A stretch of DNA of 59,536 nt, filler included, from Dugesia japonica (taxonomy: Eukaryota): assembly GCA_001938525.1 (NCBI GenBank). It is 6 parts of 6 records of this genome, joined end to end, with 100 filler letters (N's around TTAATTAATTAA, not from the genome) between each part and the next. Parts side by side here need not be neighbours in the genome. Positions count along the whole stretch, not along the records: positions 47,946 to 59,536 come from MQRL01633404.1; 5 more parts are not named here. The stretch is one strand, 5' to 3'. This document shows positions 9,379 to 59,536 of the stretch, piece by piece (the first letter of the stretch is position 1; every line of letters starts with the position of its first letter). The notes under the pieces were generated by a model. That model saw only the letters and a program-made list of their open reading frames with translations. It made no database searches and had not been told where the DNA came from. The translations under genes were made by a program, and so were the position numbers.

Positions 9379-9379
9379 A

Positions 9380-14077: not shown

Positions 14078-14093
14078 TTATTTTTTATAATGG

Positions 14094-14500: not shown

Positions 14501-14519
14501 AAAAATCAGCAACAGAATA

Positions 14520-15110
14520 CAAATCAAAATTACTTTTAGTATGTATACCAAATGTTTTTAAAAAATATAAGATTGTATACATTTTCTTATATGAACTATA
14601 ATTTTAAAACCAAAACCAACAGTATTTACTGGAAAATAATATAATAAATTTATTGGTAATTTATTAATATAATAACTTTTAACTAAATTACAAGTAGTAT
14701 TTATCATATTAATATTTAAAATATCAATCTTATTTTCTGAGGAGTATTTTCCTGGTAGATATTCTTTAGGGAAAAAACCTAAGATTGTATGAAAAAAAGA
14801 TTTAACATCAAATTTAAAAGAATGTTTTGTTGTTAAATTATCTTTTGTTGTTGAAAGATCTGGTGTAACTTCTATTCCATAATCTTTTAATTTATTATAT
14901 ATTTTTGTAATTTCATAAGCACCTGGTTCAATCGTATTTTTGTTCTTCTTTTAAAATAAAAGTGTTATTTTTATTAGTAACATTAAAAATTATATTATAA
15001 CAACTAAAACATATTAATCCGATTTCATAGTCTGAATCTAATTCTATTGTAATTTTTAATTTAATTTTTAAATCAAATTCTTTACCAACAACTAAAAATT
15101 GATGAGACAT
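14520..15110 (-). pseudogene. Maverick minor capsid (penton-like) protein
   Basis: IELDSDYEIGL...YNIIFNVTNKNN...EPGAYEI...ILGF...SENKIDI..IN.I..TCNLV..SY, the typical Polinton penton pattern. Confidence 0.75.
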
Positions 15111-15149
15111 TTTTTTAGGTAAAGTATTTTTACTTAAAATATTTATTTT

Positions 15150-16051: not shown

Positions 16052-16059
16052 TTCTGAGT

Positions 16060-16467
16060 TTGGTAAACAATTTTTTTAATATTTATGAATTGAACTTCCT
16101 TGATATGGTTTTAAGTAAAGTCTTGAAGCAGAACTAGTTTTATTTTCTAAATCTTTTTTCTGTAATTCAACTAATTCAATTTCTTTTTGTTTTTTAATTT
16201 TATCCAGAGCTTGCGCTTGAGCGGATCTAGAATTACTAACTGTACTTGCGACTGCACTGGCAGCACCAGCTGCACCTGCTATGCAGCAATTATAGCTGGT
16301 ATTGCAGCTAGAAAAGCAAATGCACCTTCATGTTCTTTTCCTAGTTTCTTTTTTATTTCTTCTTTAACTTGTTTACCAATCCAATGGTTTTTACCATTAA
16401 TTTTTATAGATCTTCTTTTATTTGAATTTACTAAATCAATTAATATATGTTCTGATACTGAAGACAT
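16060..16467 (-). pseudogene. Maverick core/membrane-lytic-like small protein (adenain-substrate type)
   Basis: HEGAFAFLAAIPAIIAA...GAAGAASAVA...RLYLKPYQGS resembles xxGG/FL-hydrophobic and G.GLYL.PY.G motifs. Confidence 0.55.
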
Positions 16468-16498
16468 TTTGTTAAGATAAACTTTTTTACTTATAAAA

Positions 16499-17095
16499 AT
16501 GGAATATAGTGAGAAAGAAAGAATGATGTGAAAAGAGATAACAGATTTTTTACAAGATAATAATAACTTAGAGTTGTTTATTGAAGACCATAAATATTGT
16601 AAATGTTTTGTACATATATATGAATATATTAAATTTACACAAGTAAAATTAAAAGATCCCAGTAGGTCCCATGAAGTAAAATTTAAAGATCCCAGAGGGT
16701 CCCGTAATAGAAGATTTGAAAATAAAACTAATCATAAAGTTGAACCAGAAATCCCAGAGGGCCCCATTAAAGGTATTTATGTATATAAAACCGAATCTAG
16801 ATCACTGCTTGAATATAAATATAAATATCCTTGAGGGGCCCAACCTCCAGAACAATCAAACTTAGAAGAACCTAGAGGGGCTCAACCAAAACAATTGAAC
16901 AAGTATTTATTGAATTTCACGAAGAATCCCAAACTGAACAACCTTCTTCACCTTTAACAAGAGTTAAATTTAAATATAGATTTTTCAAACAACAATGTTT
17001 AAGTTCTTTCAAAAGTACTAAAATAGATTTACCTGAGATTATCCCCATTGAAAATAATACATGTATAGATTCAATAATTATTAATATTAAAACAT
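16499..17095 (+). pseudogene. Maverick hypothetical protein, rich in GC micro-palindromes
   Basis: Degenerate frame from ATG 16499 that includes ORF 16574-16834; divergent from the structural block. Confidence 0.45.
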
Positions 17096-17225: not shown

Positions 17226-18323
17226 AATATAAACTATTCTTATCAATATATTACTAAATTAATGAGATATTATAATTTATGTGAAAAACATCCAATTTTA
17301 TTTACTTGTACATTGTCTTGGTATAAAATAAATAATAATTTTAAAAGAACGAAGAAATTTTAAACCAAGATAATGAAATAATTTTAGATGTAGAAACTTT
17401 AAATAGAGAAGAAGATGAATATTCAGATGAAGATCCCTAAAGGTCCCATTTTTGAGTGAAAAGTTTCCGGCCAGGAAATTATCATATCTTTTTTACATCT
17501 TTAACTCTAAAATAAGTCTTCCATTAAAATNNNNNNNNNNNNNNNNNNNNNNNNNNNNNNNNNNNNNNNNNNNNNNNNNNNNNNNNNNNNNNNNNNNNNN
17601 NNNNNNNNNNNNNNNNNNNNNNNNNNNNNNNNNNNNNNNNNNNNNNNNNNNNNNNNNNNNNNNNNNNNNNNNNNNNNNNNNNNNNNNNNNNNNNNNNNNN
17701 NNNNNNNNNNNNNNNNNNNNNNNNNNNNNNNNNNNNNNNNNNNNNNNNNNNNNNNNNNNNNNNNNNNNNNNNNNNNNNNNNNTTTCTGAATTTCTTGATC
17801 TTTCACATTTACAACATCTTCAAAAATTATTAAATTCTTTTTCTGTTTAGATAATTTATCACAAGGAATAATTTCATTTGGTTTATTACTTAANNNNNNN
17901 NNNNNNNNNNNNNNNNNNNNNNNNNNNNNNNNNNNNNNNNNNNAGAAGATATTTACAAATTTTAGCTACAAAAGTAGATAGAAATAAGTCTGAACTTTTG
18001 AAAATAATGAAAGATAACAATATAAACTATTCTTATCAATATATTACTAAATTAATGAGATATTATAATTTATGTGAAAAACATCCAATTTTATTTACTT
18101 GTACATTGTCTTGGTATAAAATAAAGAATAATTTTAAAAGAACGAAGAAATTTTAAACCAAGATAATGAAATAATTTTAGATTTAGAAACTTTAAATAGA
18201 GAAGAAGATGAATATTCAGATGAAGATCCCTAAAGGTCCCATCCTTGAGTGAAAAGTTTCCGGCAAGGAAATTATCATATCTTTTTTACATCTTTAACTC
18301 TAAAATAAGTCTTCCATTAAAAT
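17226..18323 (+). repeat. Near-identical ~305-bp direct duplication (17226-17530 and 18019-18323)
   Basis: Same sequence with a few substitutions; both copies lie next to N gaps. Confidence 0.85.
17785..18156 (+). pseudogene. Maverick hypothetical protein (gapped)
   Basis: YITKLMRYYNLCEKHPILFTCTLSWYKIKNN; 3' part duplicated at 17226-17363. Confidence 0.45.
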
Positions 18324-18339: not shown

Positions 18340-18439
18340 NNNNNNNNNNNNNNNNNNNNNNNNNNNNNNNNNNNNNNNNNNNNTTAATTAATTAANNNNN
18401 NNNNNNNNNNNNNNNNNNNNNNNNNNNNNNNNNNNNNNN
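18340..18439. other. Artificial contig-joining spacer
   Basis: 44N-TTAATTAATTAA-44N. Confidence 0.95.
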
Positions 18440-23589: not shown

Positions 23590-23716
23590 CTATATTAGTA
23601 AAGGGGTAGTGAGTTTAAACCTCAGCACACATTTAGTAAGCCCCGCTCCGTTGACATAATTAGATAATGACGTACGTGAGGTGACTTTTTTTATGTGGTT
23701 TTAGTTGGGAAATCTA

Positions 23717-24290
23717 TTTGCTCACAAATTATGTCATGCGATTAATTTCATCGGTGCAATTTTACGTAATAGGATTAAGAAAAGCTACTTTTTCCTGTGG
23801 TTTTAGTTGTCAAAATTTTTAGGCTTTTTAGGCGGCAAGAGTTCTTGTACTTTCCTGTGGTTTTAGTTGGGAAAATTCTTTAGGCATTTTAGTTGGGGAT
23901 TTGCTCGGTGAGGTGGAATGAGGTCAGTTTTTAATCGGTTTTAGATGGTTTTTGTCTAAAATTTCCTCGGAATGGTTATTTTGGTCAATTATTTAGTTAA
24001 TTGGTAGAATATTTCCTCAGGATATCTCAGTTTGGGTAATTTTCAAGTGAATTGGTCTAATTTTTCCTCGCTATTGGTAATTTTTTGGGGAATTGGTCAA
24101 ATTATTCATCGGGATTTATAAATTTTGGGTGATTTAGTTGAATATTTCCTCGGGATTAGTCAATTTGGGTAATGTTTGGATGATTTGGTCAATTTTCAGT
24201 TGGTTCAGGGAAACGTGGCTCATTTTTGGACGAATCAGTCAATTATATAAACGAGAATGGTAACTTGGTTAATTTTTAGGCAAAGGTGGT
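23717..24290 (+). repeat. Left arm of long inverted repeat (modular TTGGTCAA / TTTCCTCGG repeat family)
   Basis: Reverse-complement match to 29096-29540, e.g. TTACGTAATAGGATTAAGA..GCTACTTTTTCCTGTGGTTTTAGTTG. Confidence 0.85.
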
Positions 24291-29095: not shown

Positions 29096-29540
29096 GATTT
29101 CACCGAGAGAAGTTACCATTCCCTTGTAATTAATTGACCGATTTGTTTGAAAATGAGCTACGTTTCCCTGAACCAACTAAAAATTGACCAAATCGTCCAA
29201 ACATTACCCAAATTGACAAATCCCAAGGAAATATTCAACCAAATCACCAATCCCAATGAATAATTTGACCAATTCACCAAAGAATTACCAATCTTGAGGA
29301 AAAATTCGACCAATTAACCCAATAATTGACCAAAATAATCATTCCTGAGTAAAGTTTAGATAAAAACCATATAAAACCAATCAAAAATTGACCTCATTCA
29401 ACCTCACCGAGCAAATCCCTAACTAAAAAGCCTAAAAAATTTTCCCAACTAAAACCACAGGAAAAAGTAGCCTCTCTTAATCCTATTACGTAAAACTTCA
29501 CCGATGAAAATAATCTCATGACATAATTTGTGTGCAAATA
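29096..29540 (-). repeat. Right arm of long inverted repeat
   Basis: Reverse complement of 23717-24290 with internal indels. Confidence 0.85.
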
Positions 29541-29625: not shown

Positions 29626-29725
29626 NNNNNNNNNNNNNNNNNNNNNNNNNNNNNNNNNNNNNNNNNNNNTTAATTAATTAANNNNNNNNNNNNNNNNNNN
29701 NNNNNNNNNNNNNNNNNNNNNNNNN
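29626..29725. other. Artificial contig-joining spacer
   Basis: 44N-TTAATTAATTAA-44N. Confidence 0.95.
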
Positions 29726-38524: not shown

Positions 38525-38624
38525 NNNNNNNNNNNNNNNNNNNNNNNNNNNNNNNNNNNNNNNNNNNNTTAATTAATTAANNNNNNNNNNNNNNNNNNNN
38601 NNNNNNNNNNNNNNNNNNNNNNNN
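38525..38624. other. Artificial contig-joining spacer
   Basis: 44N-TTAATTAATTAA-44N. Confidence 0.95.
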
Positions 38625-39659
38625 CTTTCAAAACACGATGTGCTTCTTCTTCAGTACAACTTCTTATATATTCTATCGTGTTTTTGGTTATAATCAAATG
38701 AAAAGCACTGCTTGCCTTCCATCACATTTCGTTTTGAGTAGCCCAGCGATGTCTTTGAAGATTTTGTGGGAAGGATATCGANNNNNNNNNNNNCCCACAT
38801 TCAATTTCGTCCAAGTTGTTCCATCGACTGCTGTATCACATAATGCATCCGAATTTTGGGACGATCCCGTAATACATGTCTCATTCTCAGATTCCGAATC
38901 GGATAGGATACGCATTCTTTTTCTGCAAAGGCCTAATAATTTCTGATGATTTTCTTTTTCACTGTCTGATGATTCCCCTGCTTGCAAACTTTCATAAGAT
39001 TCCAAAATCTCGATTTCATACTCGTTTTGAATCACTTCATTTTCATCCTCTTCAGAGCCAGAACACTCCTCACAATTACTGAATATGTTTTGTAAAATTT
39101 TATTTCCTCTTCTAGACATATTTAGATGATAAAGAAAGGCTTTTTTGTTAAAATAGTATAAATTGAGGTTCACAATAATATCACTAATTCAAAAAATATT
39201 CTAGTATTTTATTTTTCAATACTCAAACTAAGCAACTGAAACCTTCAAAATCTCTTCGCACTCAGACGCCAATTGACATTTTACGATTCGTTCTTTCTAT
39301 TATTGCTAAGCGGCAACTTTTGTTTATCGCTTGTTTCATTTGACATAACGGAATCGGATAATAGATCAAAGTATTGTCGGTACATTCATATTTATTAGTG
39401 ATGTGATGTTTGCATGTTTACTCAAAATGTTGTCTAAATTACGATAGCGTCAAATTGACACATATCCGCAGAGATAGGTATACAACATATCGAATTTCAA
39501 TATTTCAATGCTTTTGAAGAAAATAGACATCAATATATATTTACCTCGATCAATGGATAAAGGTCATTACAAGAGATAAAATAAAAATGCAAACGGGTTT
39601 TGTAATTTTCCTTATAAAATTCGAAATGCGTCAAATTGACGCGTCCCGTAAACCTAGTG
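38625..39659 (-). mobile_element. piggyBac transposon 5' portion
   Basis: TTAA (39660-39663) plus CACTAGGTTTACGGGACGCGTCAATTTGACGC terminus; subterminal GCGTCAAATTGAC repeat; acidic N-terminus followed by AVDGTTWTK...IFKDIAG (ORF 38694-39173). Confidence 0.8.
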
Positions 39660-41741: not shown

Positions 41742-42554
41742 TTAGTGAAACTTACTTTTCATTTGAAATCTGGCAAATTCTGTATCTCTTTCACTAACCG
41801 GAAGAAGTTTTATTTCACTTCCGTTAAGAGACATATTTTCTGATAATTTATCAAGATATTCCTGATTTTTCGATGCAGCTTTTTTCTGTTCCTAAATAAA
41901 ATTAAGAAATAATTTACACAAATTAAGTATTTTTTCACTCTAAAACGCTTTCTCGCCATTTGATTTAAAGTAAAGTCATCGTAATAATCAATATTTGATT
42001 TCAGTATTTTTTTTAAACTTGGTTTCCCAGCTTTTACCACTTCTTCATCTTTAGTAGCATGCTCTAAATGAAACATTGGGTCTAATGCCATTTTATTTTT
42101 AGTTTTAGAATCAGCTAGTTCCGGAAGTTCAACATCTTTAGCATCATATCTTTGTTCGCGGCGCCTAGCTCCACTAACTATAACATACTGAAAGTGCTCA
42201 GGATCCGTTTGAATAATAATATCCCCAGCGCACAAATGGCATCCCATTTTAAATTGATATATTGGTGTCGAATAAAAATTTCCAACTTTTGTTTTTTCAC
42301 TATTATATCTTACACCCATGCCAATTGGTTTATTGCATGTTAAGCACCAGCAATTAAAGGGCATTTCAAATCTAACAATAATAATTCCTTCGTGAGCTCT
42401 AGCTCCCCTTTCCCTAAGTGCATGAACCCCATGATATGAATTAAGTGAAAAATGTTTCTTATGATCAAAGTCAGGTGGATAATATTTATTTTGTCCTTTA
42501 CGTTCCCCCTAAAATATTACAGATATCATATTAAATCATAACAAAATATACCAT
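41742..42554 (-). CDS. YJU2B: Splicing factor YJU2B / CCDC130 (CWC16 family)
   Basis: Exon 1 is ATG only (42552-42554), GT-AG intron 42509-42551, exon 41939-42508, intron 41892-41938, exon from 41891. Protein MGERKGQNKYYPPDFD...IIVRFEMPFNCWCLTC...GVRYNSEK...CHLC...TDP. The 3' end is either TAA at 41742 or a further splice at GTAAG 41755. Confidence 0.93.
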
Positions 42555-43395: not shown

Positions 43396-46300
43396 ATTGC
43401 GAAGAAAAATAATGAATGATCTAGCTTTCAACTTCAATATATTACGCGGCATTCCCAATAAATTTTGTNTATATAGAAATTCAATTAGAAAGTCACCANA
43501 TTCAAAAGAATTGAAAGAAGTTTTGAGACGTATTAGTAATGGCGGTTTGAAGGTAAATCTAGAAAAATATAAATTTCATCAACGAGAGTTAATTTTTCAG
43601 GGACATATAGTAAGTTTTGATAGAGTAGGAACAAATAAAAAGAAAATTGAAGAAATTTTAAAAGTAGAACTTCCTGCTTGCATTTCTCACTAGCGTTTTT
43701 TATTGAGATTAGCAAACTTTGATTGAAGATTTATTCACAGATATGCAGAAATTCCAGCACCATTATATGCTGCAATTTCGGGTAGAGATAAGGTATTACA
43801 ATGGACCGATCGGTGTTAACAAAGTTTTCAAAATCTAAAGGATAGATTATTAAATGCACCAATATTAAACTTTCCTAGGAGGAATTGAGTTTTTGTGCTA
43901 TTGGAGCACAACTAAATCAAAATAAAGTAATATTGAAGCAGTTATTGCTTATGAATTCAGGCATTTGTCAGCTCATGAGCTGGTATACTGTGTAACGAGA
44001 AAGAAGTTGTTAGCCTATTACGAATTTGTTTTACATTTTAAACAATATCTTTACAGAAAACAATTTGTTCCATAAACATTTCACAAGGTCTTAGGTTTTA
44101 TAAAAAAAATCCAACCATCCACAAATTTCAAACATGGCTGACAAAATTATCTGAATTCAATTTTGAGTGGAAGTACAAAAAAGACGAGGAGCATGGTAAT
44201 ACTGATGGGATGTCAAGGATTTCTCACATCACATATGCACTGTGCCAGACAAAACACAGTGATGCTAAATTAGAAAAGCCCAAGGAAAAATAAATTAACG
44301 TGGTACCGGAGGATATTAGTCGGTTGGAGAGAATACATCGTGAACAGAACTAAGATCCAGTTATTAATGTGTTCTAAGAATTTTTAACAGAGGAGAGAGG
44401 TGAGTTATCAGAAGTTTTAAAAAAGCATATTTTCTTTTATTCCATGAGAAACAGTCTTAATGAATGATTTGCTGATTCTAAGAAGAGACGATGAACATCT
44501 TAATTTAATACCAGAAGGGTTCATAGCCAATATTCATTCAGAATGTTTTCCTTTTTGGAGCAAGAAGATACTCAATTATCTAAAAGATCATTATTTCTAG
44601 ACAGCAATGTGGAATTTAATCACTCATGATAGAAAGATTGTATTGTTTGTGCTAGGAGAAAGATAGATCAGACTCGTACAAAAGAAATATTTATGTCAAG
44701 AAGAATCTTGCATTTTCAGGAACAGATTTTGATAGATGTGGCTTTCATAAAATAAACTCTAGAGTAGGTAGATCCTAGCGCTCTGTATCACCCCCCAAGG
44801 TCAAATTTTTCAAGGTCACTGATACAGTATACTTGATTTTGATTTTGTCCGTGATTGAGTATACTCAATTCTTTTTGGTGGAAAATTTGAAGGTCATTTT
44901 TCAAGATCAAACTGATACAGTATACTCTATTCTGATTGATCGAAGTGGTTTAAGGTCAAAGCGATATAGTATACTGCAATCTGATTGGTCGAAGCTTTTC
45001 AAGGTCAAAGAGATAAAGTATCGTGCAATCTGATTAGTCGAAATGTTTCAAGGTCATCTGATAGACTTCATCTTTAAATTTTTGACGAACAAATTTTTCG
45101 AAACAAAGAAAGTTGCAACAATGGCCAATATAAACAAAATCAGTATTTTTTATTTTATCAACAATGAATTTAGATAAAGTTATAGATGATATGNNNNNNN
45201 NNNNNGATATAAATTATTCTCATGAAAATCAACAAAATATTGTTGAATTGAATGAAGAAGAGAAGAAGGAAACATTTGTTGAAGCTATAGGTAAGATATT
45301 TTTATGAATTTATAATTTAAATAATGAATAACTTAGAAAATATTCAAGAGGATATTGAAATGATAGTCGATGTACAAACAGTTGAAGATGTACCAATTGT
45401 AGAATAAGAAATACAGATAACTAAAGGTTCGAACCTTTAAGAAAAATCAACAGTAATATTTGATTATATTGAGTGTTAATTATGTTATTAAATAAATATT
45501 CATTTTAAAATTGTTTTTTATTTTCATTAGTAGTCTAAGTAATGTATTTCAAAAAAAAAATCTTTGTTCAAATTTGTACTTTTCGAACTTAAATTGTTTT
45601 GAAACAAACAACATTTTGATACAAGTCGTTCATGTACTGTATAGGTAATTTGAGATTTTTTACAATTGTAAAAGAAAAACCTGTAAAAAAATTAAAAATG
45701 GCGGCATTTATCTTGTTATAGAAATTTCTTTGTTTAATAGCTTTTTATAATTACGTTGATAGAACTATTTTTATACACCAATTTGTCCGTCATTTAATTG
45801 CGCGTCCAAAGATCTAATGTTCAGCGCGATATCATATTTCTACTTGACTCTGTCTTCATAAAACTAAATTTCTTTGTTCAAATTTTTCGACCCGAAGAAA
45901 GCATTTTAGGATACAGTTTTATGAGACATTCCTATCTTATTTTTTAATTTTACATCTAGCCATAAATTTTTATCATAATCGGCTGTCATCGGGGGGATGG
46001 TGGGGTCATGCTGACATACCTTTTGTGGCGAATTGAAGCATTTTTTGATACAGGTACTTTAGGTGATGTATAGGCCGTTTTTAATTTTAGGAAGATTGCC
46101 ACAAATTCCGAGTCAATATCCTTCAAAATAGCGGTAGTTTCTAATTTAAATATTTAATAACTTTTGAAGGGTCTGTCCGACAAAAACATTAAATGAATAA
46201 CATTGCGCGGCTTTACTTTGCACATCTACTGATACTAAATTTGAGACTGTCCGATAAATATTGTAGACAATACGAACAAAAGACTGCAAAATGTTTACTA

Positions 46301-47252
46301 TTACATAATCTATTACGTAATTAAAATATCACTTTGACCTTGAAACACTTCGATCAATCAGAATAGAGTAAACTGCATCAGTTTGACCTTGAAAAATGAC
46401 CTTAAAATTTTCCACCAATAAGAATGGAGTATACTAAATCACGGACCAATCAAAATCAAGTATACTGTATCAGTGACCTTGAAAAATTTGACCTGGGAGG
46501 GTGACACAGTGCGCTAGGATCTACCTACTCTGGAGCATACTATAAATATTTGGTTGTCATCATTGATCGTTGTAACAAGTTGGTGAATATGATATGATTG
46601 TCTAAGCTGGCTGATTGATCGATTTTCACAAAAAATTATGAACCACTGGATATATCAATTTAGAAGACCAAAAAGTATTTTGACAAACAGAGAAAATAAT
46701 TTCGAGAGCACATGGTTCCAAAAGAGATGTAATAATTTGTCCATCCGACATGAATTCAGTTCGCCGTACCAACATCAGTCTTGAGGAAAAAGCGATAAGA
46801 ACCACTCGTGATATGATAAAAGAAGATTGTAAAGACAAAACTGGCATGAGTTACTTCCCAGGATTGAATTTAGTATTGATGCCACTCAACGAAGTTCGAC
46901 GGGATTCTCTCTTTTTTAAATCGTATTTGGTAACAAGAGTTAGAAATGAATCCCCAAAATTTAACAAATACCAAAATTGCAAAGAAAATCACGAAGAATT
47001 TATAAACTACTGCTAACAGAATGTCCAGTTTTGCAAATGATAAACGAGGCCAAAGTGATTTAAAAATCGGATATAACGTATTGGTCAGGAGGGAACCCAA
47101 AATTAGGAAGAAAAAGGACTTCCAATATTATGGTCCTTTCATCATCATTAAATTTTTATCGCCCCATCAGGTCGAATTGAGCAGAGCTGAAGGAATAAAA
47201 GTGAGAAGGATCAAATGGTTTAAAGGATGGATTTAGTTTTGTGAGAGGGGAG
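43396..47252 (+). mobile_element. Ty3/Gypsy LTR retrotransposon pol remnant (RT end, RNase H, integrase, PPT)
   Basis: LKEVLRRISNGGLKVNLEKYKF...GHIVS; YCVTRKKLLA; EHGNTDGMSR; C..C integrase Zn motif; YKYLVVIID; YYGPFIIIK; polypurine tract 47243-47252 followed by TG at 47256. Confidence 0.88.
44762..46530. mobile_element. Non-autonomous DNA transposon with ~200-bp TIRs (GAG...CTC termini) inserted in the Gypsy integrase
   Basis: GAGTAGGTAGATCCTAGCGC... and ...GCGCTAGGATCTACCTACTC; inverted match 44762-44961 versus 46332-46530; integrase text resumes on both sides. Confidence 0.9.
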
Positions 47253-47845: not shown

Positions 47846-47945
47846 NNNNNNNNNNNNNNNNNNNNNNNNNNNNNNNNNNNNNNNNNNNNTTAATTAATTA
47901 ANNNNNNNNNNNNNNNNNNNNNNNNNNNNNNNNNNNNNNNNNNNN
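47846..47945. other. Artificial contig-joining spacer
   Basis: 44N-TTAATTAATTAA-44N. Confidence 0.95.
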
Positions 47946-47995
47946 AAAATAAATTTGATTATGCTTATTTTGAACATGTTGATTACAGTAGACTA

Positions 47996-48144
47996 CAGTA
48001 AAACACGTGAGATACATTCCGCGTTGTAGAAATTGCAGGACTTTATTTTAAAATTAAATTCATCTTTCGCTTTATACGGGAATTTTATCGCGCTATATGA
48101 GTACTAGTCGCAAAAATTTCGTCTCGTTATACGAGTGTTTACTG
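47996..48144. mobile_element. pogo/Tigger-type MITE
   Basis: TA-CAGTAAAACACG...CGAGTGTTTACTG-TA. Confidence 0.7.
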
Positions 48145-48579
48145 TACTTGCATTGGTTCTTACCAATACAATCTTCGTATTTTTTAATATATCCCCTACT
48201 TAGTTTACATAATTTCTTTATTTGTTTCTTTTTATGGTTTTATATTTTGTAAATTTTTATATTACTGTTTATAATATGTCATGGATTTCTGTTTCAACAT
48301 AAATAGAAAAATGTAGATAAGAAATTAATATGAAACATAGTTTTTATAAAATTTACAAATCAATGTAGATATTTGGGCAAAAGTCCCTGTATCAAAAATC
48401 AATAAAGCATATGAAAACCCATAATATTGTGAAGTTTAGAAATAATCGATTTTGTAAATCAGTGATGGCCAATCCGCGAGGTTCAGTACGATTTTTAAAA
48501 AATGTTTAATTTGTGTATTACAGTAACCAATTTTTAAAAAACCAAAATTTTTTTATACAAGCAATTTTTTTAAAATTGG

Positions 48580-49178
48580 TTCTGTTGAGTTCAAACTAAT
48601 CTATCCATTCCACGAGTGAGTTCATTCTCTTTACAAGTACTACCACCGAAGACTGAATTGTATAATTGACCAAGAGGAATGTTATTTTCTTCGGTAGAGC
48701 AGTCAGCTAAAGTGCTAAATTGGATCTCTTCAACTAACGTAAACAAATTTCCAAATGAATTTTGAATTCATGATTGTGAGATCTCATTCCATGCTAAAAT
48801 GGTCCTTTAGATTAATTCTTTACAAAGCGTAGACTGTAGAATCTATTTCTTGTTTTCAGATAAAGTAGCCAGTGTAGTAAGGGATAACGCTGTTTCAGGG
48901 ATTTGATATCAAGCAATGAAGGGGTGTTACCGTTTCAATCCTGTAGGTACATATGATCCAAAAGAAATTCTGATATATACTTATATTTTTCAAATGTTTT
49001 AAAATTTTATTTGGGTCTATGATATCAATACTGTACAATTGTAATTGCATAAACAAGTCTGCATCCTGTCTGAATGTTTGCTTATTGCATCAGTTTAAGC
49101 ATTGTTTTCAAGCAAGTCGCATGTGAATATTACACATTATCTAACTATTATGAAAATAAAAAAATCGTATTGAAAGGG
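48580..49178 (-). mobile_element. Possible piggyBac 5' remnant
   Basis: TTAA (49179-49182) plus CCCTTTCA terminus on minus; decayed acidic frame ...EENNIPLGQL...RGMDRLV*. Confidence 0.4.
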
Positions 49179-49917
49179 TTAAAGCTCTCATTCTCAGTGC
49201 CATGACAAGCTGCGTTATCAGACAATAATATCCCCCTAACCGGTGATTTTTTGGACAGTATATGTTGAGTTACTTGTGGAACAAATCATTGTTTGTACCA
49301 TTCTGTAAATAATGAACTCGTTTGCCAAGCATTTTTAGATCACTTGTAATATAGAATATCAATATATAGAATTAAGGAATACGAATTGTTTCTTATAGTG
49401 GTTACTGTATTTTTGTTTTTGTAAAACAGATATATGCAAATAATAAGGATTTATTGTGTTCCAAATTTTCATCCTCAAATTTTATATATACATGCAACCC
49501 GCAGGATTAAAACGCATTTTCAAAGTACCCCCCAGATCATTTGGGTTGACCAGGTCTGTTGCAAAGGATTCGTAACACATAAACGAAAATCATTTTCTAT
49601 CTTACTGTTATTAATTTCATTCATTTTGAACAAAAAAAAAATTCGCTTCCATTATTTATATAAATTTAACATTCTTTTGAAAACTTCATATTTACCAAAT
49701 TTTTTCAATCAATAAAATCGCAATAGAATCTGAAAAAGATTATATCGTAACTAGAATCCGATAAATAATTTTTCAAATTTAATTTTTAAAAATTTATATT
49801 GTTATATATTGCGCAATTTATTTTAATATTTCAAAGAATTTAAATGATATCATTTAATCTTATCTCTAGATGATTTATGTTAATTACAAATATACAGAAA
49901 AAACAATTCTATCAACA

Positions 49918-50351
49918 CTACGGAGCCTCAACACGATTATCAGTTCTTTTATCAGCCCCAAGAGGATCTTTAAATCCTTCTGATTCACAAAATAATTGAC
50001 GTTCAAGAATGACTTTTCCTTCTTTATATTGTTGACTTTCGTCATTAGCCTGCTCATACACCCAGCCTAGTTTAGTTGTACATTTAATGCAATGAACGTC
50101 TCTAACTAAATGACGACCTGTAAGCATTACTCTATCCTAAGAAAGAATCAATGCTTTCAATTATAAAACAATTATTTCACTTGTATTTCAGTAGAATATA
50201 TATTGACCACCTTATTAAATAAAAATGCTCGTCCAGTTGCACCAGTGAATCTAGTGCTAATAATTTCATCTTTATTTGATAAAGGAGTATCACACTTTTG
50301 ACACTGAATGATTCGTTTTCCTCCTAAATGTTCAATAAACAGAATTCCCAT
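49918..50351 (-). CDS. YPEL5: Protein yippee-like 5 (129 aa, two exons)
   Basis: Exon 50181-50351, 44-bp GT-AG intron 50137-50180, exon 49918-50136; [20 protein letters not shown]...[19 protein letters not shown]...[26 protein letters not shown]...[10 protein letters not shown]. Confidence 0.96.
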
Positions 50352-51340
50352 TTGGATTCTTTGAGATACTTATAAATTTTATGAGTAATTATAAAGAAAT
50401 TAATAAATTTCAATCAAAATTTGATTAAGGAATTGAATTTATATTCAAAAATAATATTATAAATTACAAAATCCGTTTTCGAAATACAATTAAAAAATTG
50501 ATCAGCTGACTAACAACAATAAAATTTTTAATGCATTAAAACAAATATTTATTATGTATTTATTAAATGACTGGTAACGATTATTTCTTTTAATAGTTAA
50601 CTTTTTGAAAATTAACGATTAATTAATAGTTAATTCCAATAAGCTACACAATAAGTATTTTAAAATTTACAGATAAATGTGTGTTTAGATAACATTTTAC
50701 AAGATAAAACACAACAAACTTTAAATTAAAAACTCCAGAAGTTCAATTACGTAAACAAAAGAATATTGACAGTATTCCGTTCTAGTGAAGTGTCTTCTTA
50801 ACAACATAAAATGAACATGGGTCTGAAGTTGTCAGTCTACACAGAATGGACCTAGAAAGCAATTCCAAACTGGGAAATTTGTGTGTATTAAATACCCACC
50901 ACTTTAACGGATGGTAATTGGAGCCTCCTCTGAGGAACATTGAACTTGTTAGTTATCATATGAAAAAAATAAAAGCTATCTCAAATTTGAACATCAATTT
51001 ATCTATTTGATAGACAATTTTAAGTTGAGTAAGAATATCATGTTTAAAAATAGTCAATCTTTATCCTCGATGAAATAAAATCAAAAATAAAGAGTAAAAT
51101 AAATTGTCAATTACAGAATTCGAACTCCAACACAGAATTTTCGAAAAATAAAAGTATCTCAAATTTGATCATTGATTTATCTATTTGATAAAAACCTTTT
51201 AGATCATATTTAAAAAATGACTCCAAAAGTGCACAATTCAAATAAATTACTTTAAAATTACGTAGGTTTCAAAAACACATTTTTAACGAACAACTTTATT
51301 CATTTCAATTTTATTTAATTTTTATTCCAATTTTAGTTTA

Positions 51341-52200
51341 TTACTTTAAATAAGTTATCCAATGGATCTTCAATGATATTTTCAAGCCAAATAAATTCAT
51401 TAAGATAGTCTTGTAAATATTCTTTTCTAATTCCTCGCATATTTTTACAACGGGATTTTTGTTTATTTTAATATGATTCAACATTCTGGTTATAAGCTCC
51501 GATTTGAAAGTTAATAAAGTTAATTTTATGGTTAAATCCAGGTGTACATATCCCAATGTAGCAAGAGAACAATAAACTCTCCAAGCATCACTATGGATAA
51601 TGCTACCTGGATGCACTATCTGAGTAATTATTGGCAATAAAGTATCAGCTTTTCTATTAGATACTACCTACATAAATCCTTTAGCTGGAACATAACTGCA
51701 GTCTACAATCCCAAATACCCATATTTAAGAATCTGAAAGTCTGCCTTGATGATACTTTTGCTTATGACAAAAAGAGCTTTCCTAAATTTGACATACAACA
51801 TTTTTCTTCCGAATGTAATTGGATACGCCAGAAAATAGTTGGAGACATAGTTTCTCAACAGTTTGTAGATTTTAATTATGGTAGATGACGCAATCGATAT
51901 CTACTTTTTAATCTAACAAACTCTCTTCAACTGCCCATTTATATAAAATCTCTAACCAAGTTTTAAGATCAATTGTGAAACTACTAAAAAATGAAAAATG
52001 TCTTATGGATGTTGTAGTCTTAAAGTGACTACAATGTTTATTTTGGCAATTCCATACNAATCGATCTCTTATTGATGTCTTTTTTGTTCAATTCATCTCA
52101 ATTTCACAGTACTTACAATGCATTTGTTGAGATGCTTTGTATATTGTTGCCAAAGCAAATCAGCAATTGCATGAGTTGAAATGATTTTAAATTATAATAC
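51341..52200 (-). mobile_element. Merlin (ISXO2/IS1016-like) transposase pseudogene
   Basis: C..C...WNCQNKHC...SIR..SFF zinc ribbon; ESSF..KQKYHQGR; WVFGIVD...R.ADTLLPII...PGSIIHSDAWRVY..L...GY.H; NQNVES. Confidence 0.85.
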
Positions 52201-52989
52201 AATCCAACGATTTTTCCCATATATATGTAGACCTTATGTCTTAATATCCTTAATATAGATAATTAATATCAGTATATAGGTATTGAAAAATAATTATTAC
52301 TTTNNNNNNNNNNNNNNNNNNNNNNNNNNNNNNNNNNNNNNNNNNNNNNNNNNNNNAAATTAATTACTAGGAGTTGCAACCCAAGTAGATTTTAACTCTC
52401 TTAAGTAATTTAAAATGAGGTGAAAATATTGAAAATGTGGTCTCTATTTATACTAGAGACCGTTAATAAATCATGTATAAATTAAATGATTATTTTACTA
52501 GAATCATACAGAATTATAAACATTTTCCATGCAAATATGAAAATTTTCATAAATAATTAAAACTTATATTTACATAAAAATAAAATCAAATCAATAAATT
52601 AAATCCAATAATAAGGATTTGATTGTTTATTATAAAATTCACAATTATTAAAAGAGTTCCAAATCAATAAATTGAATCTAATAATAAGGATTTCATTGTT
52701 TATAATTAATAGAGATTCGATTTAACGATAAAATAAAAATTTTGAATTATAATGATATAATAATTTGCACATTCAGAACAAACNNNNNNNNNNNNNNNNN
52801 NNNNNNNNNNNCAAAATTAAATCACAAAAATAAGTCTACTCAAAGTTAAGTCTACTTAAAATTATGAAATCAGATAAAGTTCGAATGATTGCGTTGATCT
52901 TCAGTTGTTGAATGAATTGATCAATTGATTGACGACTTGCTGGATGATTGAATTGTTCTTCAGTTGGTTAATGAATTTTGTTCTGATTG

Positions 52990-53180
52990 TTGTTGTTTTG
53001 ATATTTCCAGATGTATTCTGAGTATTTTGTTTGCTATGCTTGTTTATGTATGTGTGCATGTCTATTACTTTCCGCAACACATTGATGAAACCAGTAACTC
53101 CTTTGATTTATAGAATTGTATAAGTTCTTCTAAACTTTCTCCCAGCAAGACTCTTATCTTTTCCTCATGATAAGTAGACA
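52990..53180 (-). mobile_element. Possible second Merlin N-terminal fragment
   Basis: MSTYHEEKIRVLLGESLEELIQFYKSKELLVSSMCC resembles the Merlin I.F....LL...M.C start. Confidence 0.3.
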
Positions 53181-54592
53181 TATTGATTGCTATTTATAAT
53201 TACCGTCTGTTATAACAAATCATTTCTAGTCATTTTTAAATCACGTGTTCAAAAATATTAAGTTAATATTAAATTAAAATTACACTAAAAAATACATATT
53301 AAAAGTTTGATCATAAAATTAAAAAATAATTAAACAAAGTAAATTTATAAATATAAATTTAATTAAGCTCCAAAAGCTCGAAATAAAACATCGAATTGTA
53401 AAATTTAAATAAATGTAAATTACCGTCATTCATATTGTAAGTTCATGTGTCATAAAAAATGACACTAAAATTAAACATATTCATAAATTGACGGTAAAAT
53501 AATACATGTTAAAAGATTTACACTAAAAATACATAATAATGTTGGGGTGAAACACTTGAGAATGGAAAATAAGCCAGCGATTAGGTACACTTGAAATTTA
53601 AATGAATGTCACAAGAAAGAAAACGAAGAACACAGACAAAAGAAGGAGTTAAACCAGTTACCGAAAGGAATAATTGAAGAAAAAACCGAAATAAAAGAAC
53701 TAAATATGGGAAATGATCCGTAACCTAATGAGTTACAAAGGAAGAAAAGAAATGTTGGAAGATAAAAAACGGACTGAGAGAACAAAGAAAGGAAAATTAA
53801 TAACGGAAGAAAATAATTCATTAAATAAAAGAAAGTCAAAGAAAATAATCAACTTATAGAAAATAAATTAAATTAATTAATTAAATTAATTAGTAAAAGA
53901 AAACAGCAGAACTAAATTAATTTCGGATCAGAAAAAAACGAAATGAACATCGAATTAATATTTTGGAAGAAAATAAAATAAATAATTTATTTATTTAAAT
54001 AAAATAAATCGAACAAGCTAAAACAATTTAATTTTGAAAAAAAATTAAAAATTCTGTGAAATATGGAAAATAAAGGCAACTTCCCATGGCAGAAAATCAG
54101 CAGACAAGAAAATTATGATCCAGAAAAAATCGGAGATTTCAAAAATGCGAGTTAGAAAATCATAACGAGACTCAGAAAAAAGATACAAGGGTTTGAAGAT
54201 GGACTAATAATTTTGGAATCCTAAAATAACCCCCAATAAAATGAACTCATGTGATGTTCAAGCCAATAGAAATGTTGGGGTTCCACCTGAGTTTAGTTAC
54301 AAGAACAGACGGCTGGGGAAAAACAGCCCTCAGGGGACCCTTACAAGAATTTAACCCAAAGTCCCTAATTTAGGCTTTCGGTGTAGGGTGGTTGACCTCT
54401 TACTTTATGAGAGGTGTACGCCCGTACACCTTTAATTCGGGTTCCTCTATTTCCCGTAATAAAATTTAAAGAAGAGCTAATCGAAAAGTTCTATTGATAC
54501 AACATTTATATTTCTTCCAATGCACCAGGGTCTAACCACTGGTCTGTGTCGGTTACTAGAAAATTGAACGTGGCGACGTCGTCGTCTTCATT

Positions 54593-54913
54593 TTATTGTA
54601 TCCAAGTTGGGTTGCCTAGTTGGCGTGAAAGATCCGAAATATATTGCTTCAGGAAGTCTATCTTCCTTTGCAATAATTGTTTCGTCTCCTCCTCAAGGGC
54701 CTTGGTTTGGACAGCCAGTTCACTTTGTTTTTTAACTATAGTGTCCAACTTCTTTATCAGTCTATCTCGTTGGGCAAGGTGCTTAAGGAGCGCCCGGTTG
54801 GTTTTCTGTTTAAGGTGTCTTTCTACTAAGAGCCGACGCATTATCCTGTGACACCGTCGTATGCTATTAGGGAAGGTAATCTGAGGCACTAAAGAAAAGA
54901 ATATTAATGGCAT
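54593..54913 (-). CDS. Orphan coiled-coil ORF in inner element
   Basis: 106-aa open frame, GC above background, heptad-like LIKKLDTIVKKQSELAVQTKALEEETKQLLQ; start uncertain. Confidence 0.5.
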   Translation of the reverse strand: MPLIFFSLVPQITFPNSIRRCHRIMRRLLVERHLKQKTNRALLKHLAQRDRLIKKLDTIVKKQSELAVQTKALEEETKQLLQRKIDFLKQYISDLSRQLGNPTWIQ

Positions 54914-55003
54914 TCAAGGAATGATAATAATATTAATTATAGGTACAAGGGAAAATGATTTTAGAGTAAGATGAACATCAAAGAAAAATATATTAAACTG
55001 TAT

Positions 55004-55451
55004 TCAAACAAAGTCTAGGGACGAGAGGCCTGGATCCCTTTGTCCACCATAAGTNNNNNNNNNNNNNNNNNNNNNNNNNNNNNNNNNNNNNNNNNNNNNN
55101 NNNNTCCACCATAAGTGGAGTCAGTGGCATGACTTTTATTAACTTCATAATGTCGTCAACCAGTTTATTCTCTCGGTCATGGTTGGACCGGATAATGTCA
55201 GTCAGTGATTCTAACTGGGCTTTCCAAGCTCTCTCCTGCTGATGTTATGCCTCGGCTTCTGCTTTGAAAGCCAAGCACTTCTTTTTATAACGCCGAACCT
55301 TGGCCTCAGCGTTTGCGATATCAGCTTCCCAGCGACGCTTCGCTAACTTATACAGATCCCAAGTGATCTTGGTTTCGTTACTAGAACCTCTCATTTTCTT
55401 GGTTGGGACCGTAGCTCGATTTAATGATGAGTGCACTAGAATAGTATACAT
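55004..55451 (-). pseudogene. Orphan coiled-coil ORF in inner element (premature stop at 55245, N gap)
   Basis: Frame continues past TAA as HQQERAWKAQLESLTDIIRSNHDRENKLVDDIMKLI. Confidence 0.45.
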
Positions 55452-55614
55452 TTACTAAAGTTAATGATGTTAGAAAACACTCGAAACTTCTTTTATTTCT
55501 TAGTGAAAAACCGAAATCCTATTATTAATAAAAAAAAATTTATAACGAAAGGGTGAGTTATATTACTATTAAATAGAAACACACATTTATTGATAAATAT
55601 AAATGATAACTATA

Positions 55615-55971
55615 TTAAACACTAGGGGTTAGGGGAGGTGTCCGTAGCAGGAACCGTGTTTTCTGTGTCCTCCCCCCCACTGAGGGTTCCCTAACGCTCC
55701 AAAGCAAGTTATTGATAAACGCTAGCACCACCGGGGGAGGAACCGGAGCCTGATATTTGAAAAGAGTAGTGTGATTTCGCGTCGGCCCATTCCATTGTTG
55801 GTAATTCAACCTTTCCCCGAAGCTCTCAATATGAGCTACCGCAGCATCCACAGGAGGCAGATTAGTTCGTTCGACTAGTATACCAGCATCGCGGTTATAC
55901 GGGTTACGATGTCATCTAAAGATGATGCGGCGCGTTTGGCGATCGACTATTCGTTCCCAAATGGATTCCAT
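55615..55971 (-). pseudogene. Orphan ORF in inner element (one internal TGA)
   Basis: MESIWERIVDRQTRRIIFR*HRNPYN...VDAAVAHIESFGERLNYQQW...; GC-rich island between AT spacers. Confidence 0.5.
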
Positions 55972-56108
55972 TCCTATAGTTATAAAAGTTGGGTAAATAG
56001 AAAAAATAAGAAACAAAAAATATTCTCATATACATAAATACTGGTCGTCCCTTTCTCACTATAACTATGTTCACAAACAACAAAAAATTTATTTAATTCG
56101 ACAATAAA

Positions 56109-56303
56109 TTAATCGAACTCCTTTCCTGCATCCGGATCTACAATAACTGGCATGGGAGACATCTCGGCGAAACAGGCCAAATCGGTTTCGTCCGGATGCT
56201 CCACTATTCCCCGCGATAATATGTGAGCCAAGTTTTGCTTTAGGCGAGCGCCTTTCCTTTGCTTCCGAATTAAGAGGATGGTGGCCTTTAATTCCCTGTG
56301 CAT
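56109..56303 (-). CDS. Orphan short ORF in inner element
   Basis: 64 aa, GC-rich island, ATG just after a pyrimidine tract and AG. Confidence 0.45.
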   Translation of the reverse strand: MHRELKATILLIRKQRKGARLKQNLAHILSRGIVEHPDETDLACFAEMSPMPVIVDPDAGKEFD

Positions 56304-56639
56304 GACCTAAATAAGGAAATTAGTTAGACAGAGTTTATTTCGGTAAAAGGGCCATTCATTCGTTAACAAGGTGGAGTTGAACAGGATGGTGAACAACTTA
56401 ATAGCAATCTAATCAGATGGCTGGCACCATGGTCTAACCTTATCAAATAACACTAATATCTATTAGATTTATTGACTTATTAATCTATGACCCCTCTAAT
56501 AGGGAACATCAGGGAAGCAATACCGGCGATTATAACCACATGACAGTGATAAAGTTATTGACTTGTTGAAGGGCATAACTCAATATTCGTGAGCTTAATA
56601 ATACCAATAATAGCGACTATAATGGTGATCATCCCCCTA

Positions 56640-56960
56640 GTGGAAAATATTGATAATAACAATTTTAATAATTTCTATGATAATAGTAATGATAATACCA
56701 ATAGTAATCATATCAACAATAATCATAATAATAATGAAGATAATGATAAGCACGACTACAATAATAATAATAATGCCCATGATAATAATAACGCTAAAAT
56801 TTAATGTCGGTAATGATGATAATAGTAATAATATTAATAATGATAAATGTAATAATAATAGTAATATTAATGAGAACAATTAACAATAATGTTACTCATA
56901 ATAATTATAATATCAGGAATTATATTGATAACAGGATTTAATAATTATACTTAAATTATA
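56640..56960. repeat. AAT/GAT-rich low-complexity tract
   Basis: Degenerate trinucleotide run; Asn/Asp-rich if read on +. Confidence 0.8.
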
Positions 56961-59536
56961 ATCGCTGTTATGACAATACTAGCGATGATACTACTACTGA
57001 TGTCCCCATGATTAAGGATATTGTCAATATTAAGATTAGTCAGAACATCTATATCTATGGTGCCATCAGTCATTCTGATTCCACGGATAGGCAAAAAAAG
57101 ACAGTTGATCGTAAACCCCCAAAACAGGCTGAATTGTTATTTAATGTTGACTAGCACACACTAAGTCTGCAGATATGAGTCAGGCACATTCTCTGCCCTA
57201 GTCCGATAGTGTGTATTACAAATCGATAACAAAAATCCGATACTAGTGATGAACATTTTATTTCGTCATTTAATCGTGAATCAGTGGGATGAACATACTG
57301 AAATTTTCATGATGAGTAATTTTCTAGTTGGAGTAATGAGAAATAATCTTATAGAACTTAGAATCTATCTCATCCAACCGAGTTGGTTTGGCGATGAATT
57401 TTCAAATGCGCTTCAATTTCTTTTTTCAGAAATTGGCTATTAAATTCCGGCAAATTCATGGATATTTGGAAATTATTTGCTCAACTATCGACAATTTAGT
57501 TTAACCATTAATCATGAGAAACTATCTCCTCGTCTGGAGAAAATTTTCCTATTGGGTAGCCTGGAAATTTAGTGCAAATTGACAAAATGTTAGTCGACTG
57601 TTTTTTTCTAACTTTGGAAATTATGACATTCATTGGGGAACAGTCATCATGAATTATTTTACCCGAGTAGAACTGGTATGATAAATATGTTGTTTATCCT
57701 TTTCTACACTATGTAAATAGTATGTTAATAAAGAAATAATTGATACTTTTTTTGTTAATTTGAATATCAATAAAATATAACATGAACAGTGTATTATGAT
57801 ACCATTTATTATACAGTAATTAGAAATAAAAAAACGTGAACTTTACTTTATAAATAATTGCAAGGTTTTCCTTTCTCTCCAAGGGGTAGCGAAATGTGAT
57901 GTACTTGATTACGGTATAGAGTTGCTTCTAACGGAGTTCCAATTTTTTTTCAGATCGAGCACTTTCTTTCTATAGTCCCAAACGGATTCAATTAAATGAT
58001 ATTCTTTTAAAAAAACAAATCGTGATCTTACAGATAGTGAATAGATGTCTGAGTATTGATTTTCACAATATCTTCTTGATAATTTATATCCGCGAATATG
58101 CGACTAGTTTAATAAAACTGCTAAAATTTGGTTTTTTGAGATGAGATTCTCTAATTTTCTGGGGGTTTAAGTATCGTTTTTCACGACACCCCAACTTGTT
58201 CGACATTGGTCAGTTATTTTTATTTCCAGATTCTGCTACCTTATTGGTTCTGGTGCCAATTTTTTCATGTTTTTAGACATGTCATTGGTGCCTATTTTTA
58301 GAATGGCACATGGAAATGGTTCCTTTATGCTAATTTTATTTTTAGACATCCCATTGGTCTGTTTTTTGGACCTTATGGCAACCTTCCAGACGATGGTAAG
58401 GTTTTTTGATTATAAACTTTAGATGATCTACCCTTTATTCTTCTGGAATTTTCTTATCCCGAGCTCCTGTGATTTTCTAGAGCAAAGTTATTTGAAATAA
58501 ACGAATTTTTGGCTTAATTTTATTTATTTTTTGTCTACAATTAATTAATATTTTTTTGCAATTAAATATTTTTATTAATAATTTTTTTTCTTCTCGATAT
58601 TTTAATTTGTAATTTCTTTTAATTAGTTATATGGAAGGATGTTGATTTCTATTATCTAAGCTCCTGTGTGCCGCCCTTTTCTTATTTTATGGTAATTAAA
58701 GCTTCGTGACCCCGTTTGATCTTATTTCTTTTCCAACTGAGTGTTTCACCCCAACAGAAACATTAGAAAAATCGTACNATGTTAAGAAACCAATGAAAGG
58801 AACGAGGGTGTAAAGAAAAAACAGTATAAATACCCTTTCAATTTCAGACAAAAACTACTCTTAAAAAATTATGAAGATAAAATTTATACCCGAATCGAGT
58901 CCCGAACATAAATTTTAAATCAAAATTTTTACTCAAGCAAATTTCGGAGCGGAATTTATCTCAACAGGTATTACCCGTTTTAAAATTGATGTTTTGCAAC
59001 GATTTCCGACTTGATGAGTTACAGATGTTATGGGACCCAAAATAATTGACGACGTTATGCAGATGTGGATCCTAAGTTAATGATTAGGTGGTATCCAGTT
59101 GGTGGTAATGATAAATCAAATAATTCTTATGTGCTTGCTCCAGATCAAGATTACCGTCCACGTTAGTTTTTAGTTTATTGATGTCGTATTAATTTAATAT
59201 GTAATAAATATATTATTATGTATTAATAATAATATATCTTTCCATAACCAAATTTTCTTTTATTTAATATGGTTTTATTTTATTCTTTTGTTAAACTGAA
59301 ATCCTTGACTAATAGATATTAAATAGTCTAAAAATCAAGCGAGTATTGTGAAATATGAACCCAAACCAAAGGGATGCGAGTCTNTACTCGGATTCCGAGT
59401 CAACGGCTCCATTCCGAAGATCTGGATTCGGATAAAATTCTTCGAGGGGTTTTATTAGGCCGACTACCCTAGACTTGTCAACTCACCTAGATAAAACCCC
59501 AACAATATTAATAAAATTAAACATATTCAAAAAATA

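Follow-up and report, generated by a model that had tools for sequence, protein, structure and literature searches.

Can a single long terminal repeat (LTR) of a retrotransposon carry a set of genes of its own? The question is raised by a locus of the planarian Dugesia japonica, at 54273..58756 of a 59,536-nt window from NCBI GenBank assembly GCA_001938525.1. The window, by which we mean the whole stretch of DNA analysed, consists of six parts of six records joined end to end with filler, and its positions 47,946 to 59,536, which include the locus, come from record MQRL01633404.1. Here a 4.5-kb element with LTR-type ends and a 4-bp target-site duplication (TSD) sits reversed inside a shorter relative and contains four small open reading frames (ORFs A-D) with coding signatures. 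An LTR origin, all of its possible forms taken together, appears highly probable, and with moderate confidence we read the element as a Gypsy-type LTR, solo or collapsed in the assembly, with a promoter and a non-coding leader that would be joined by splicing to each small gene. The original prediction, an annotation of this DNA that had proposed an integrase-type element with orphan cargo genes, had mentioned neither the nesting, nor the signals for splicing and poly(A) addition, nor a gap of 50 N in the assembly.

Two nested elements with matching ends

The inner element is read on the minus strand and the outer one on the plus strand. Their parts, named where appropriate after the unique 3', repeated and unique 5' regions of an LTR (U3, R and U5), are as follows.

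54273..58756, sense minus: inner element, putative long solo LTR, 4484 bp as assembled including 50 N, delimited by its termini and TSD
54269..54272, no strand: left copy of the TSD, GAAA, by sequence match
58757..58760, no strand: right copy of the TSD, GAAA, by sequence match
58724..58756, minus: U3-side 5' end of the inner element, its first 16-17 nt equal to the outer element's 5' end (0 of 200 shuffles)
54273..54452, minus: folded U5-side 3' end of the inner element, a homologue of 59352-59504 in which a long stem closes on the terminal bases
55055..55104, no strand: assembly gap of 50 N within ORF C, with an identical 12 nt on either side
53540..54272, plus: outer element, left part, U3-like and A-rich, with CCAAT at 54263
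58761..59504, plus: outer element, right part, with CCAAT at 58790, TATAAA at 58825, a donor-like GT at 58968, AATAAA at 59203 and a folded 3' end

Read on the plus strand, the inner element starts TGTTGGGGT at 54273 and stops ACCCCAACA at 58756, its termini at these positions being TGTTGGGG(T) and (A)CCCCAACA. The inverted ends match perfectly over 9 bp and patchily to ~22 bp, a score reached by none of 200 shuffles, and the GAAA duplication is exact at 4 bp and mismatched at 5 and 6 bp. This confirms the inverted termini and exact TSD of the original prediction, though the two features together are at chance level: TG-starting 9-bp inverted pairs with a 4-bp duplication, 0.3-10 kb apart, number four in the window against a mean of 3.9 in 40 dinucleotide shuffles, and so are no proof of an element. 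The inner element is real because its particular terminal 9-mer, for which ~0.05 occurrences are expected per strand, is present four times in the window, as two nested pairs. Alternative pairings of these ends (53540 with 58756, and 54273 with 59504) were rejected, as their flanks are without a match.

The other pair delimits the outer element (53540-59504, plus strand), which is ~1.48 kb long once the insert is removed. The inner element lies reversed within it, inserted between the CCAAT boxes at 54263 and 58790. Both elements end TGTTGGG...CCCAACA, fitting the integrase signal TGTTRNR...YNYAACA of animal Gypsy LTRs, which have a U3-R-U5 plan (PMC3601003). The 4-6-bp TSD of Metaviridae is present in exact form around the inner element (GAAA) and at three of four bases around the outer one (ATAA/ATAT, chance ~0.09). 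No primer-binding site (PBS) or polypurine tract (PPT) was seen beside either element when the flanks were read by eye.

With the inner element read on the minus strand, the two elements resemble each other at both termini. Neither the alignment of the 5' ends nor that of the 3' ends is reached in 200 shuffles, and the alignment of the 3' 170 nt, with the terminal 12 nt removed, is reached in none of 500. Similarity between the conserved blocks is low, and the two families are therefore distant. Within each element the two ends are dissimilar, so that both families keep a distinct 5' end and a distinct 3' end.

Shared signals and four small reading frames

The interior of the inner element contains the following features.

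58205..58357, minus: four CCAAT boxes, putative NF-Y sites
58166..58173, minus: TATA-like box of putative function
58026..58031, minus: putative splice donor GTAAGA
57820..57969, minus: possible small frame Z, weak, preceded by 62 nt of intron-like sequence; lacks an ATG, has one internal stop and a GC of 0.33
57805..57810, minus: first AATAAA past the donor, putative R/U5 poly(A) signal, aligned with the outer AATAAA at 59203
56640..56915, no strand: AAT-type low-complexity tract, the surrounding plus-strand frame having no coding signature
56109..56303, minus: ORF A, intact, 64 aa; ATG 3 nt behind an acceptor, AATAAA at 56088-56093, two predicted helices, a relative at 51% identity
55615..55971, minus: ORF B, 118 codons; in-frame stop at codon 20, acceptor 2 nt before its ATG, AATAAA at 55586-55591
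55105..55451, minus: ORF C, coiled-coil-like and of 115 codons or more; interrupted by a stop at codon 69, ATG 3 nt behind an acceptor, runs into the N gap
54506..54913, minus: ORF D, 135 codons; interrupted by a stop at codon 107, with a strong acceptor at 54888 and a single predicted helix of 85 residues

One order of signals is common to both elements: CCAAT, TATA-like box, splice donor, AATAAA and folded 3' end. Judged by sequence, each element has a putative promoter, an AATAAA and an integrase end in this order on one strand, as in a U3-R-U5 plan. From the start of the last CCAAT box to the TATA-like box the distance is 36 nt in the inner and 35 nt in the outer element, and from the last CCAAT box to the donor GT it is 178 nt in both; from the TATA-like box to AATAAA it is 363 and 378 nt. 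One of 1000 shuffles and one of 922 control windows align as well as the two promoter-leader regions do, and 12 of 500 shuffles as well as the stretches from donor to AATAAA. The leader upstream of the putative donor is free of ATG. Beyond the first AATAAA the correspondence of lengths ends. From this AATAAA it is 3366 nt to a conserved GAACCC close to the 3' end of the inner element, against 154 nt in the outer one, and the entire size difference therefore falls in the putative U5; the surplus of the long form, ~3.2 kb, lies wholly between the first AATAAA and the 3' end.

The minus-strand CCAAT boxes stand at 58205, 58243, 58284 and 58353. All four had been noted in the original prediction, which ended the cluster at ~58340; it reaches 58357. 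Shuffling the element 1000 times gives a cluster of this size in 23 cases, and clusters as large or larger are present in other repeats of the window. In planarian promoters, TATA boxes are found in 5% and CCAAT is enriched in those of intestinal and epidermal genes (PMC10558129).

The 3' ends are also alike in folding. The last 150-180 nt fold better than shuffles on the sense strand (z -2.7 and -4.3 in the two elements), and at both 3' ends a stem closes on the terminal bases (4 of 2000 and 0 of 2000 shuffles). The 5' ends have no such stem (1050 of 2000 and 889 of 2000).

In the outer element, the donor-like GT at 58968 is followed by a 57-nt intron-like stretch ending AG-ATG and then by short frames before AATAAA 59203, which are possibly a minimal gene module of its own. 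Frame Z of the inner element has no protein similarity to these small frames (107-459 of 500 shuffles).

The U5-like interval of the inner element opens with ~1.1 kb without coding signal and continues with four GC-rich blocks, each with one near-open frame on the minus strand. The blocks have a GC content of 0.44-0.50 and the linkers between them, 122-160 nt long, one of 0.21-0.24; outside the inner element GC is 26%. In each block the frame is depleted of stops, with 0 internal stops against 3.4 expected in A, 1 against 5.4 in B, 1 against 6.9 in C and 1 against 6.9 in D, the last over 120 codons tested (P 0.025, 0.020, 0.009 and 0.008). GC at codon position 2 is low in A, C and D. The first ATG follows a YAG by 0-3 nt in three of the four ORFs (A, B, C), compared with 152 of 1712 background ATGs (P 0.003), and AATAAA occurs within 35 nt past the stop in two of four (A, B), compared with a background of 916 of 7928. 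All four ORFs are oriented as the putative LTR promoter, and ~55 nt separate the end of ORF D from the conserved block at the 3' end. The original prediction's claim of at least four short minus-strand ORFs is borne out, four of them having coding signatures. Its decayed plus-strand frame is not upheld: at 56840-57661 there are 16 stops in 274 codons against 21.8 expected (P=0.11), GC is flat by codon position (0.31/0.33/0.30), and an AAT-type microsatellite (56640-56915) stands at the start.

GC at the third codon position (GC3) is ~0.5 in the ORFs and 0.22 in a host gene of the window, YJU2B/CCDC130, which suggests that A-D would not be recently captured host genes. A codon-usage score trained on the host does not favour the frames of A-D, and a comparison of A, C and D with one another showed no similarity (59-287 of 300 shuffles).

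Two further observations concern the interruptions. No local fold in either element is stronger than the one at 54573-54692 (z ~-5.9 on one strand and -5.1 on the other, from 25 shuffles), which is found within ORF D around its internal stop. On the minus strand, CAT follows the internal stops of both B (55909-55914) and C (55242-55247). A stop codon followed by C can be leaky, and programmed read-through may take place at these two sites.

ORF A is the frame with a natural relative, an unnamed 60-aa protein with 51% identity (E 5.3e-8 among 1.84 billion proteins). The two have a common start and similar length, and ORF A is therefore supported as a stand-alone small protein. It had two matches at E<=0.001; the second, a repetitive rabbit protein at 31% in five stretches, was rejected as chance. 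A profile of ORF A and its relative recovered the relative itself, one of two candidates, and 0 PDB sequences. Atlas matches of ORF A all score below 0.9, and in third place, at 0.85 with 75 of 256 features, comes a cluster with Integrase_H2C2 in 30% of its members, which is a lead only and has no Pfam support. Its predicted structure comprises two helices, with a predicted local distance difference test (pLDDT) of 78; Foldseek against viral and PDB structures gave 0 matches at E<=0.001, and a further search among 48,161 chains a best Z of 4.2, such fold searches being uninformative for a two-helix model.

Among the tested ORFs no Pfam, NCBIfam, PHROGs or PDB family was found. ORF B gave 0 families in Pfam, the only library with which it was compared, and ORF C none in Pfam, NCBIfam or PHROGs. 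For C and D there are weak coiled-coil Pfam rows only, and the model of ORF D is one 85-residue helix. The 106-aa open stretch of D had 0 of 39 word-index candidates at E<=0.01, all of lengths 58-186, and no usable Atlas match. Reverse transcriptase (RT), integrase (IN), gag and transposase were likewise lacking in 22 translations of both elements with stops written as X, which gave three weak coiled-coil Pfam rows below the cut-off, and ORF B's own frame was scanned apart from these; the lack of RT, integrase and transposase in the original prediction holds. None of the domains of Burro, a giant planarian LTR element, was matched either (gag, MATH, BCL2, BIR, ankyrin, env, protease, RT, IN). 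The lack of polyprotein domains is as expected of a solo LTR.

Competing origins of the inner element, and the rest of the stretch

Under the reading that we prefer, a Gypsy integrase would have inserted the parent element between two CCAAT boxes of a shorter related LTR, making the 4-bp duplication, and recombination between its LTRs would then have left a single repeat. On the minus strand this repeat would be laid out as a U3 of ~600 nt (CCAAT, TATA-like box), an R of ~360 nt (donor before AATAAA) and a U5 enlarged by ~3.2 kb. Transcription might start near 58145. U1 at the donor 58031 might suppress the first AATAAA, as in the foamy virus 5' LTR, allowing transcripts to escape, and the ATG-free common leader could be spliced to one acceptor ahead of ORF A, B, C or D to give one small protein per mRNA. 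The acceptors could alternatively serve spliced-leader trans-splicing. The products of A-D are most likely accessory factors of the parent retroelement, and those of C and D presumably coiled-coil interaction modules.

A solo LTR is as a rule a non-coding relic with, at most, promoter activity. Should the preferred reading be true, recombination to a solo LTR, by which genomes commonly disable LTR elements, would strip gag-pol yet leave accessory genes expressible at every locus, and some small orphan coiled-coil planarian 'genes' could be LTR cargo. In the inner element one could then test how a retroelement manages a U5 of 3.5 kb together with a number of internal poly(A) signals. Planarian LTR elements are abundant and are de-repressed tissue by tissue upon PIWI loss (PMC8532177). 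A broader proposal, tentative and to our minds rather doubtful, is that a planarian Gypsy lineage moved a multi-gene accessory cassette into the LTR U5, where one leader and donor serve four genes by alternative splicing; every solo LTR would be a self-driven expression unit, families would differ mainly in module number, and purifying selection would act across copies.

Several points weigh against the preferred reading. No second copy of the inner element was found within the window, which leaves a gag-pol partner and a PBS/PPT linkage unsupported, and with one copy the cassette is not distinguishable from a one-off insertion. Three of the four ORFs (B, C, D) are interrupted in this copy, by one stop each, and the copy is decaying. 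The first ATG of D has no adjacent acceptor, and AATAAA is missing from both C and D. Among 117 scored AGs the acceptor of A comes first and that of D second, but the score is ad hoc, was devised after the sites were seen and covers 117 of the 243 AGs. GTAAG is present twice in the inner element and is too short a motif to carry weight alone. The 3'-end fold is equally strong on the opposite strand (z -3.7 and -3.3) and, having no strand preference, is no proof of an RNA stage; in the RNAalifold consensus of the two 3' ends 12 of 33 pairs differ on both sides, a weak covariation since it comes from two sequences fitted by that program. Alignments of the inner and outer elements over the first and last 750 nt are matched by 3 of 30 shuffles each, and the outer duplication is imperfect. 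A 3.5-kb U5 means an unusually long strong-stop DNA. Finally, the 50-N gap with its 12-nt repeat is also what a collapsed full-length element would leave, and because it lies inside the inner element, both solo status and exact length are provisional.

Among the alternatives, the one that survives best, and which we consider unlikely, is an ordinary solo LTR of ~1.3-1.5 kb that received an unrelated gene cluster once in its U5, for example a spliced-leader trans-spliced operon fragment of another mobile element or a virus. The acceptors would then be the passenger's, and the locus merely an ordinary nested solo LTR. That all of the extra ~3.2 kb is in one interval, that the outer relative is without the block and that GC3 of the ORFs is ~0.5 against 0.22 in the host gene all fit such a passenger. 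The modules of acceptor, ATG, stop and AATAAA, separated by 120-160-nt linkers, have operon-like gene spacing and resemble a trans-spliced operon. Trans-splicing does occur in flatworms (PMC4558846). Against a passenger stand the common orientation of all four ORFs with the LTR promoter and the closeness of the end of ORF D to the conserved 3' block, and no long inverted repeat or repeat family was found at the block edges among the top-listed repeats and BLAST matches.

It is quite unlikely, in our view, that the LTR is genuine and its solo state an assembly artefact, a full-length element having collapsed at the N gap, with one LTR's start fused to the other one's end; even so the genes would be inside the LTR. 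The gap in ORF C with the same 12 nt on either side would suit a collapse, as would the many gaps in the window, and the giant LTR elements of planarians are known to cause trouble in assembly (PMC11410931). The duplication would match in either case. Two contigs overlapping by 12 nt explain the gap equally well; it may mark a plain overlap of contigs or be what a collapsed full-length element left behind. The three interrupted ORFs suit an old relic.

We give little credence to a non-autonomous DNA element mobilised by an integrase, which would resemble Ginger except for its very short inverted ends, bring along a promoter and cargo, and have no RNA stage. The original prediction had left the choice open between a giant gene-carrying solo LTR and a vehicle of this kind. 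TGTNR termini and 4-bp duplications are common to Ginger and Gypsy, and Ginger1 and Ginger2/Tdd also span a comparable length, 2.6-7 kb (PMC2836005). A whole transcription unit between the ends, no adjacent PBS or PPT and a 3' fold without strand preference would all suit a DNA element. Ginger1, however, has terminal inverted repeats (TIRs) of ~40-270 bp and duplications of CCGG or CCGT/ACGG, and Ginger2/Tdd has TIRs of ~45-300 bp and prefers RTATAY (PMC2836005). Here the TIR is 9 bp when perfect, the duplications are GAAA and, for the outer element, ATAA/ATAT, and no integrase-like transposase is found in the inner element; that neither duplication is TATA counts for little, this being a preference judged on two sites. 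Because the TIR lengths and target sequences that define Ginger are absent, the LTR branch is supported over it. Also on the LTR side are the polarised ends, dissimilar within an element yet each conserved between families, the U3-R-U5 order of signals, the 4-bp duplication, the lack of an adjacent PBS or PPT, and the flatworm host.

That the ends are real and the ORFs chance frames in GC-richer DNA is hardly credible: the ORFs are short, those tested have no Pfam, NCBIfam, PHROGs or PDB family and D had none among its 39 candidates, but stop depletion in one frame per block, low position-2 GC in A, C and D and the coupling of acceptor to ATG speak against chance, and for A the natural relative with a common start largely refutes it.

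Elsewhere in the stretch, the host gene YJU2B/CCDC130 is represented by an exon at 41810-42508 on the minus strand (Pfam E 1.6e-53); among the best 120 of 408 matches, the six best named ones are from flatworms, at 57-61% identity. Their distance, taken with the 26% GC, makes a triclad planarian the likely host. An AT-rich cluster at 9335-17000, with DNA-polymerase-like frames at 9335-11246 on the plus strand and several minus-strand ORFs at 12186-16731, resembles on inspection a decayed Polinton/Maverick, and six ORFs of the cluster that were scanned had no Pfam match at the cut-off. On the minus strand at 38694-39188 is a 164-aa frame whose N-terminal stretch, acidic and serine-rich, is by eye reminiscent of how a piggyBac-type transposase begins; it has no Pfam match.

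Long imperfect inverted repeats (76-92%) at 23715-24266 and 29110-29540, ~5 kb apart with internal CCAAT-rich subrepeats of ~51 nt, probably represent a non-autonomous DNA transposon. Inverted repeats of ~210 bp (92%) at 44748-45056 and 46326-46544, with a 49-nt tandem unit, bound an element of ~1.8 kb that is like a miniature inverted-repeat transposable element. A direct duplication of 305 bp at 98% identity (17226-17530 and 18019-18323), between N-gaps, is probably an assembly duplication. The window has no tRNA or Rfam matches. Its five 100-base filler joins (9279-9378, 18340-18439, 29626-29725, 38525-38624 and 47846-47945, written as 44 N, TTAATTAATTAA and 44 N) produce false repeat families and leave its long-range order uncertain.

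Comparison with known systems

Retroviral ORFs borne by LTRs, such as foamy virus bel, HIV nef and MMTV sag, are located in U3, upstream of the promoter. The ORFs of the inner element differ in lying downstream of the promoter and of the first poly(A) signal. A functional parallel is with the foamy virus LTR, in which a splice donor upstream of the poly(A) signal inhibits poly(A) addition in the 5' LTR and permits read-through (PMC3694450). The donor of the inner element likewise stands before the poly(A) signal, and the likeness is an analogy of working only.

Small extra ORFs made from spliced messages are also found in LTR elements of bdelloid rotifers, as ORF3s, some of them coiled-coil; these sit in the interior past pol (PMC5408684), and here the four ORFs lie between LTR-type ends. 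Plant Ogre elements have LTRs of comparable length, 1.9-6.5 kb, but belong to a plant lineage and have their extra ORFs in the internal region (PMC6431247). In the literature covered, to which Repbase, the primary Burro paper and some supplements did not belong, we found no account of a Gypsy LTR with ORFs in its R/U5. The terminal 8-mers of the inner element are absent from one supplement file of PMC8532177 and three of PMC11410931.

Solo LTRs of Metaviridae (Gypsy/Ty3) provide a close match in general form. Those of the tapeworm, such as lennie/ta-TRIM, are like the inner element in end motif, TATA-like box, AATAAA and 4-bp duplication (PMC3601003, PMC4558846), and of 65 cases of lennie and its solo LTRs, 63 show a 4-bp duplication (PMC4558846). 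Cestode solo LTRs start transcripts that are spliced to acceptors downstream (PMC4558846), whereas in the inner element the acceptors and the ORFs are inside the repeat. The inner element is also far longer, 4.5 kb against averages of 174-695 nt in a training set of animal Gypsy LTRs (PMC3601003).

For length and cargo together, a further comparison is with Burro (GYPSM1) of Dugesiidae, which has a probable host group in common with the inner element. Burro interiors reach 25 kb and total lengths exceed 30 kb, implying multi-kb LTRs, and Burro carries accessory ORFs with coiled-coil (Smc-like) motifs (PMC6431247). Its accessory ORFs and domains lie upstream of or within the polyprotein, the section of that review on these elements making no mention of LTR ORFs (PMC6431247), and those of the inner element are in the repeat. 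A putative link between the inner element and Burro is plausible.

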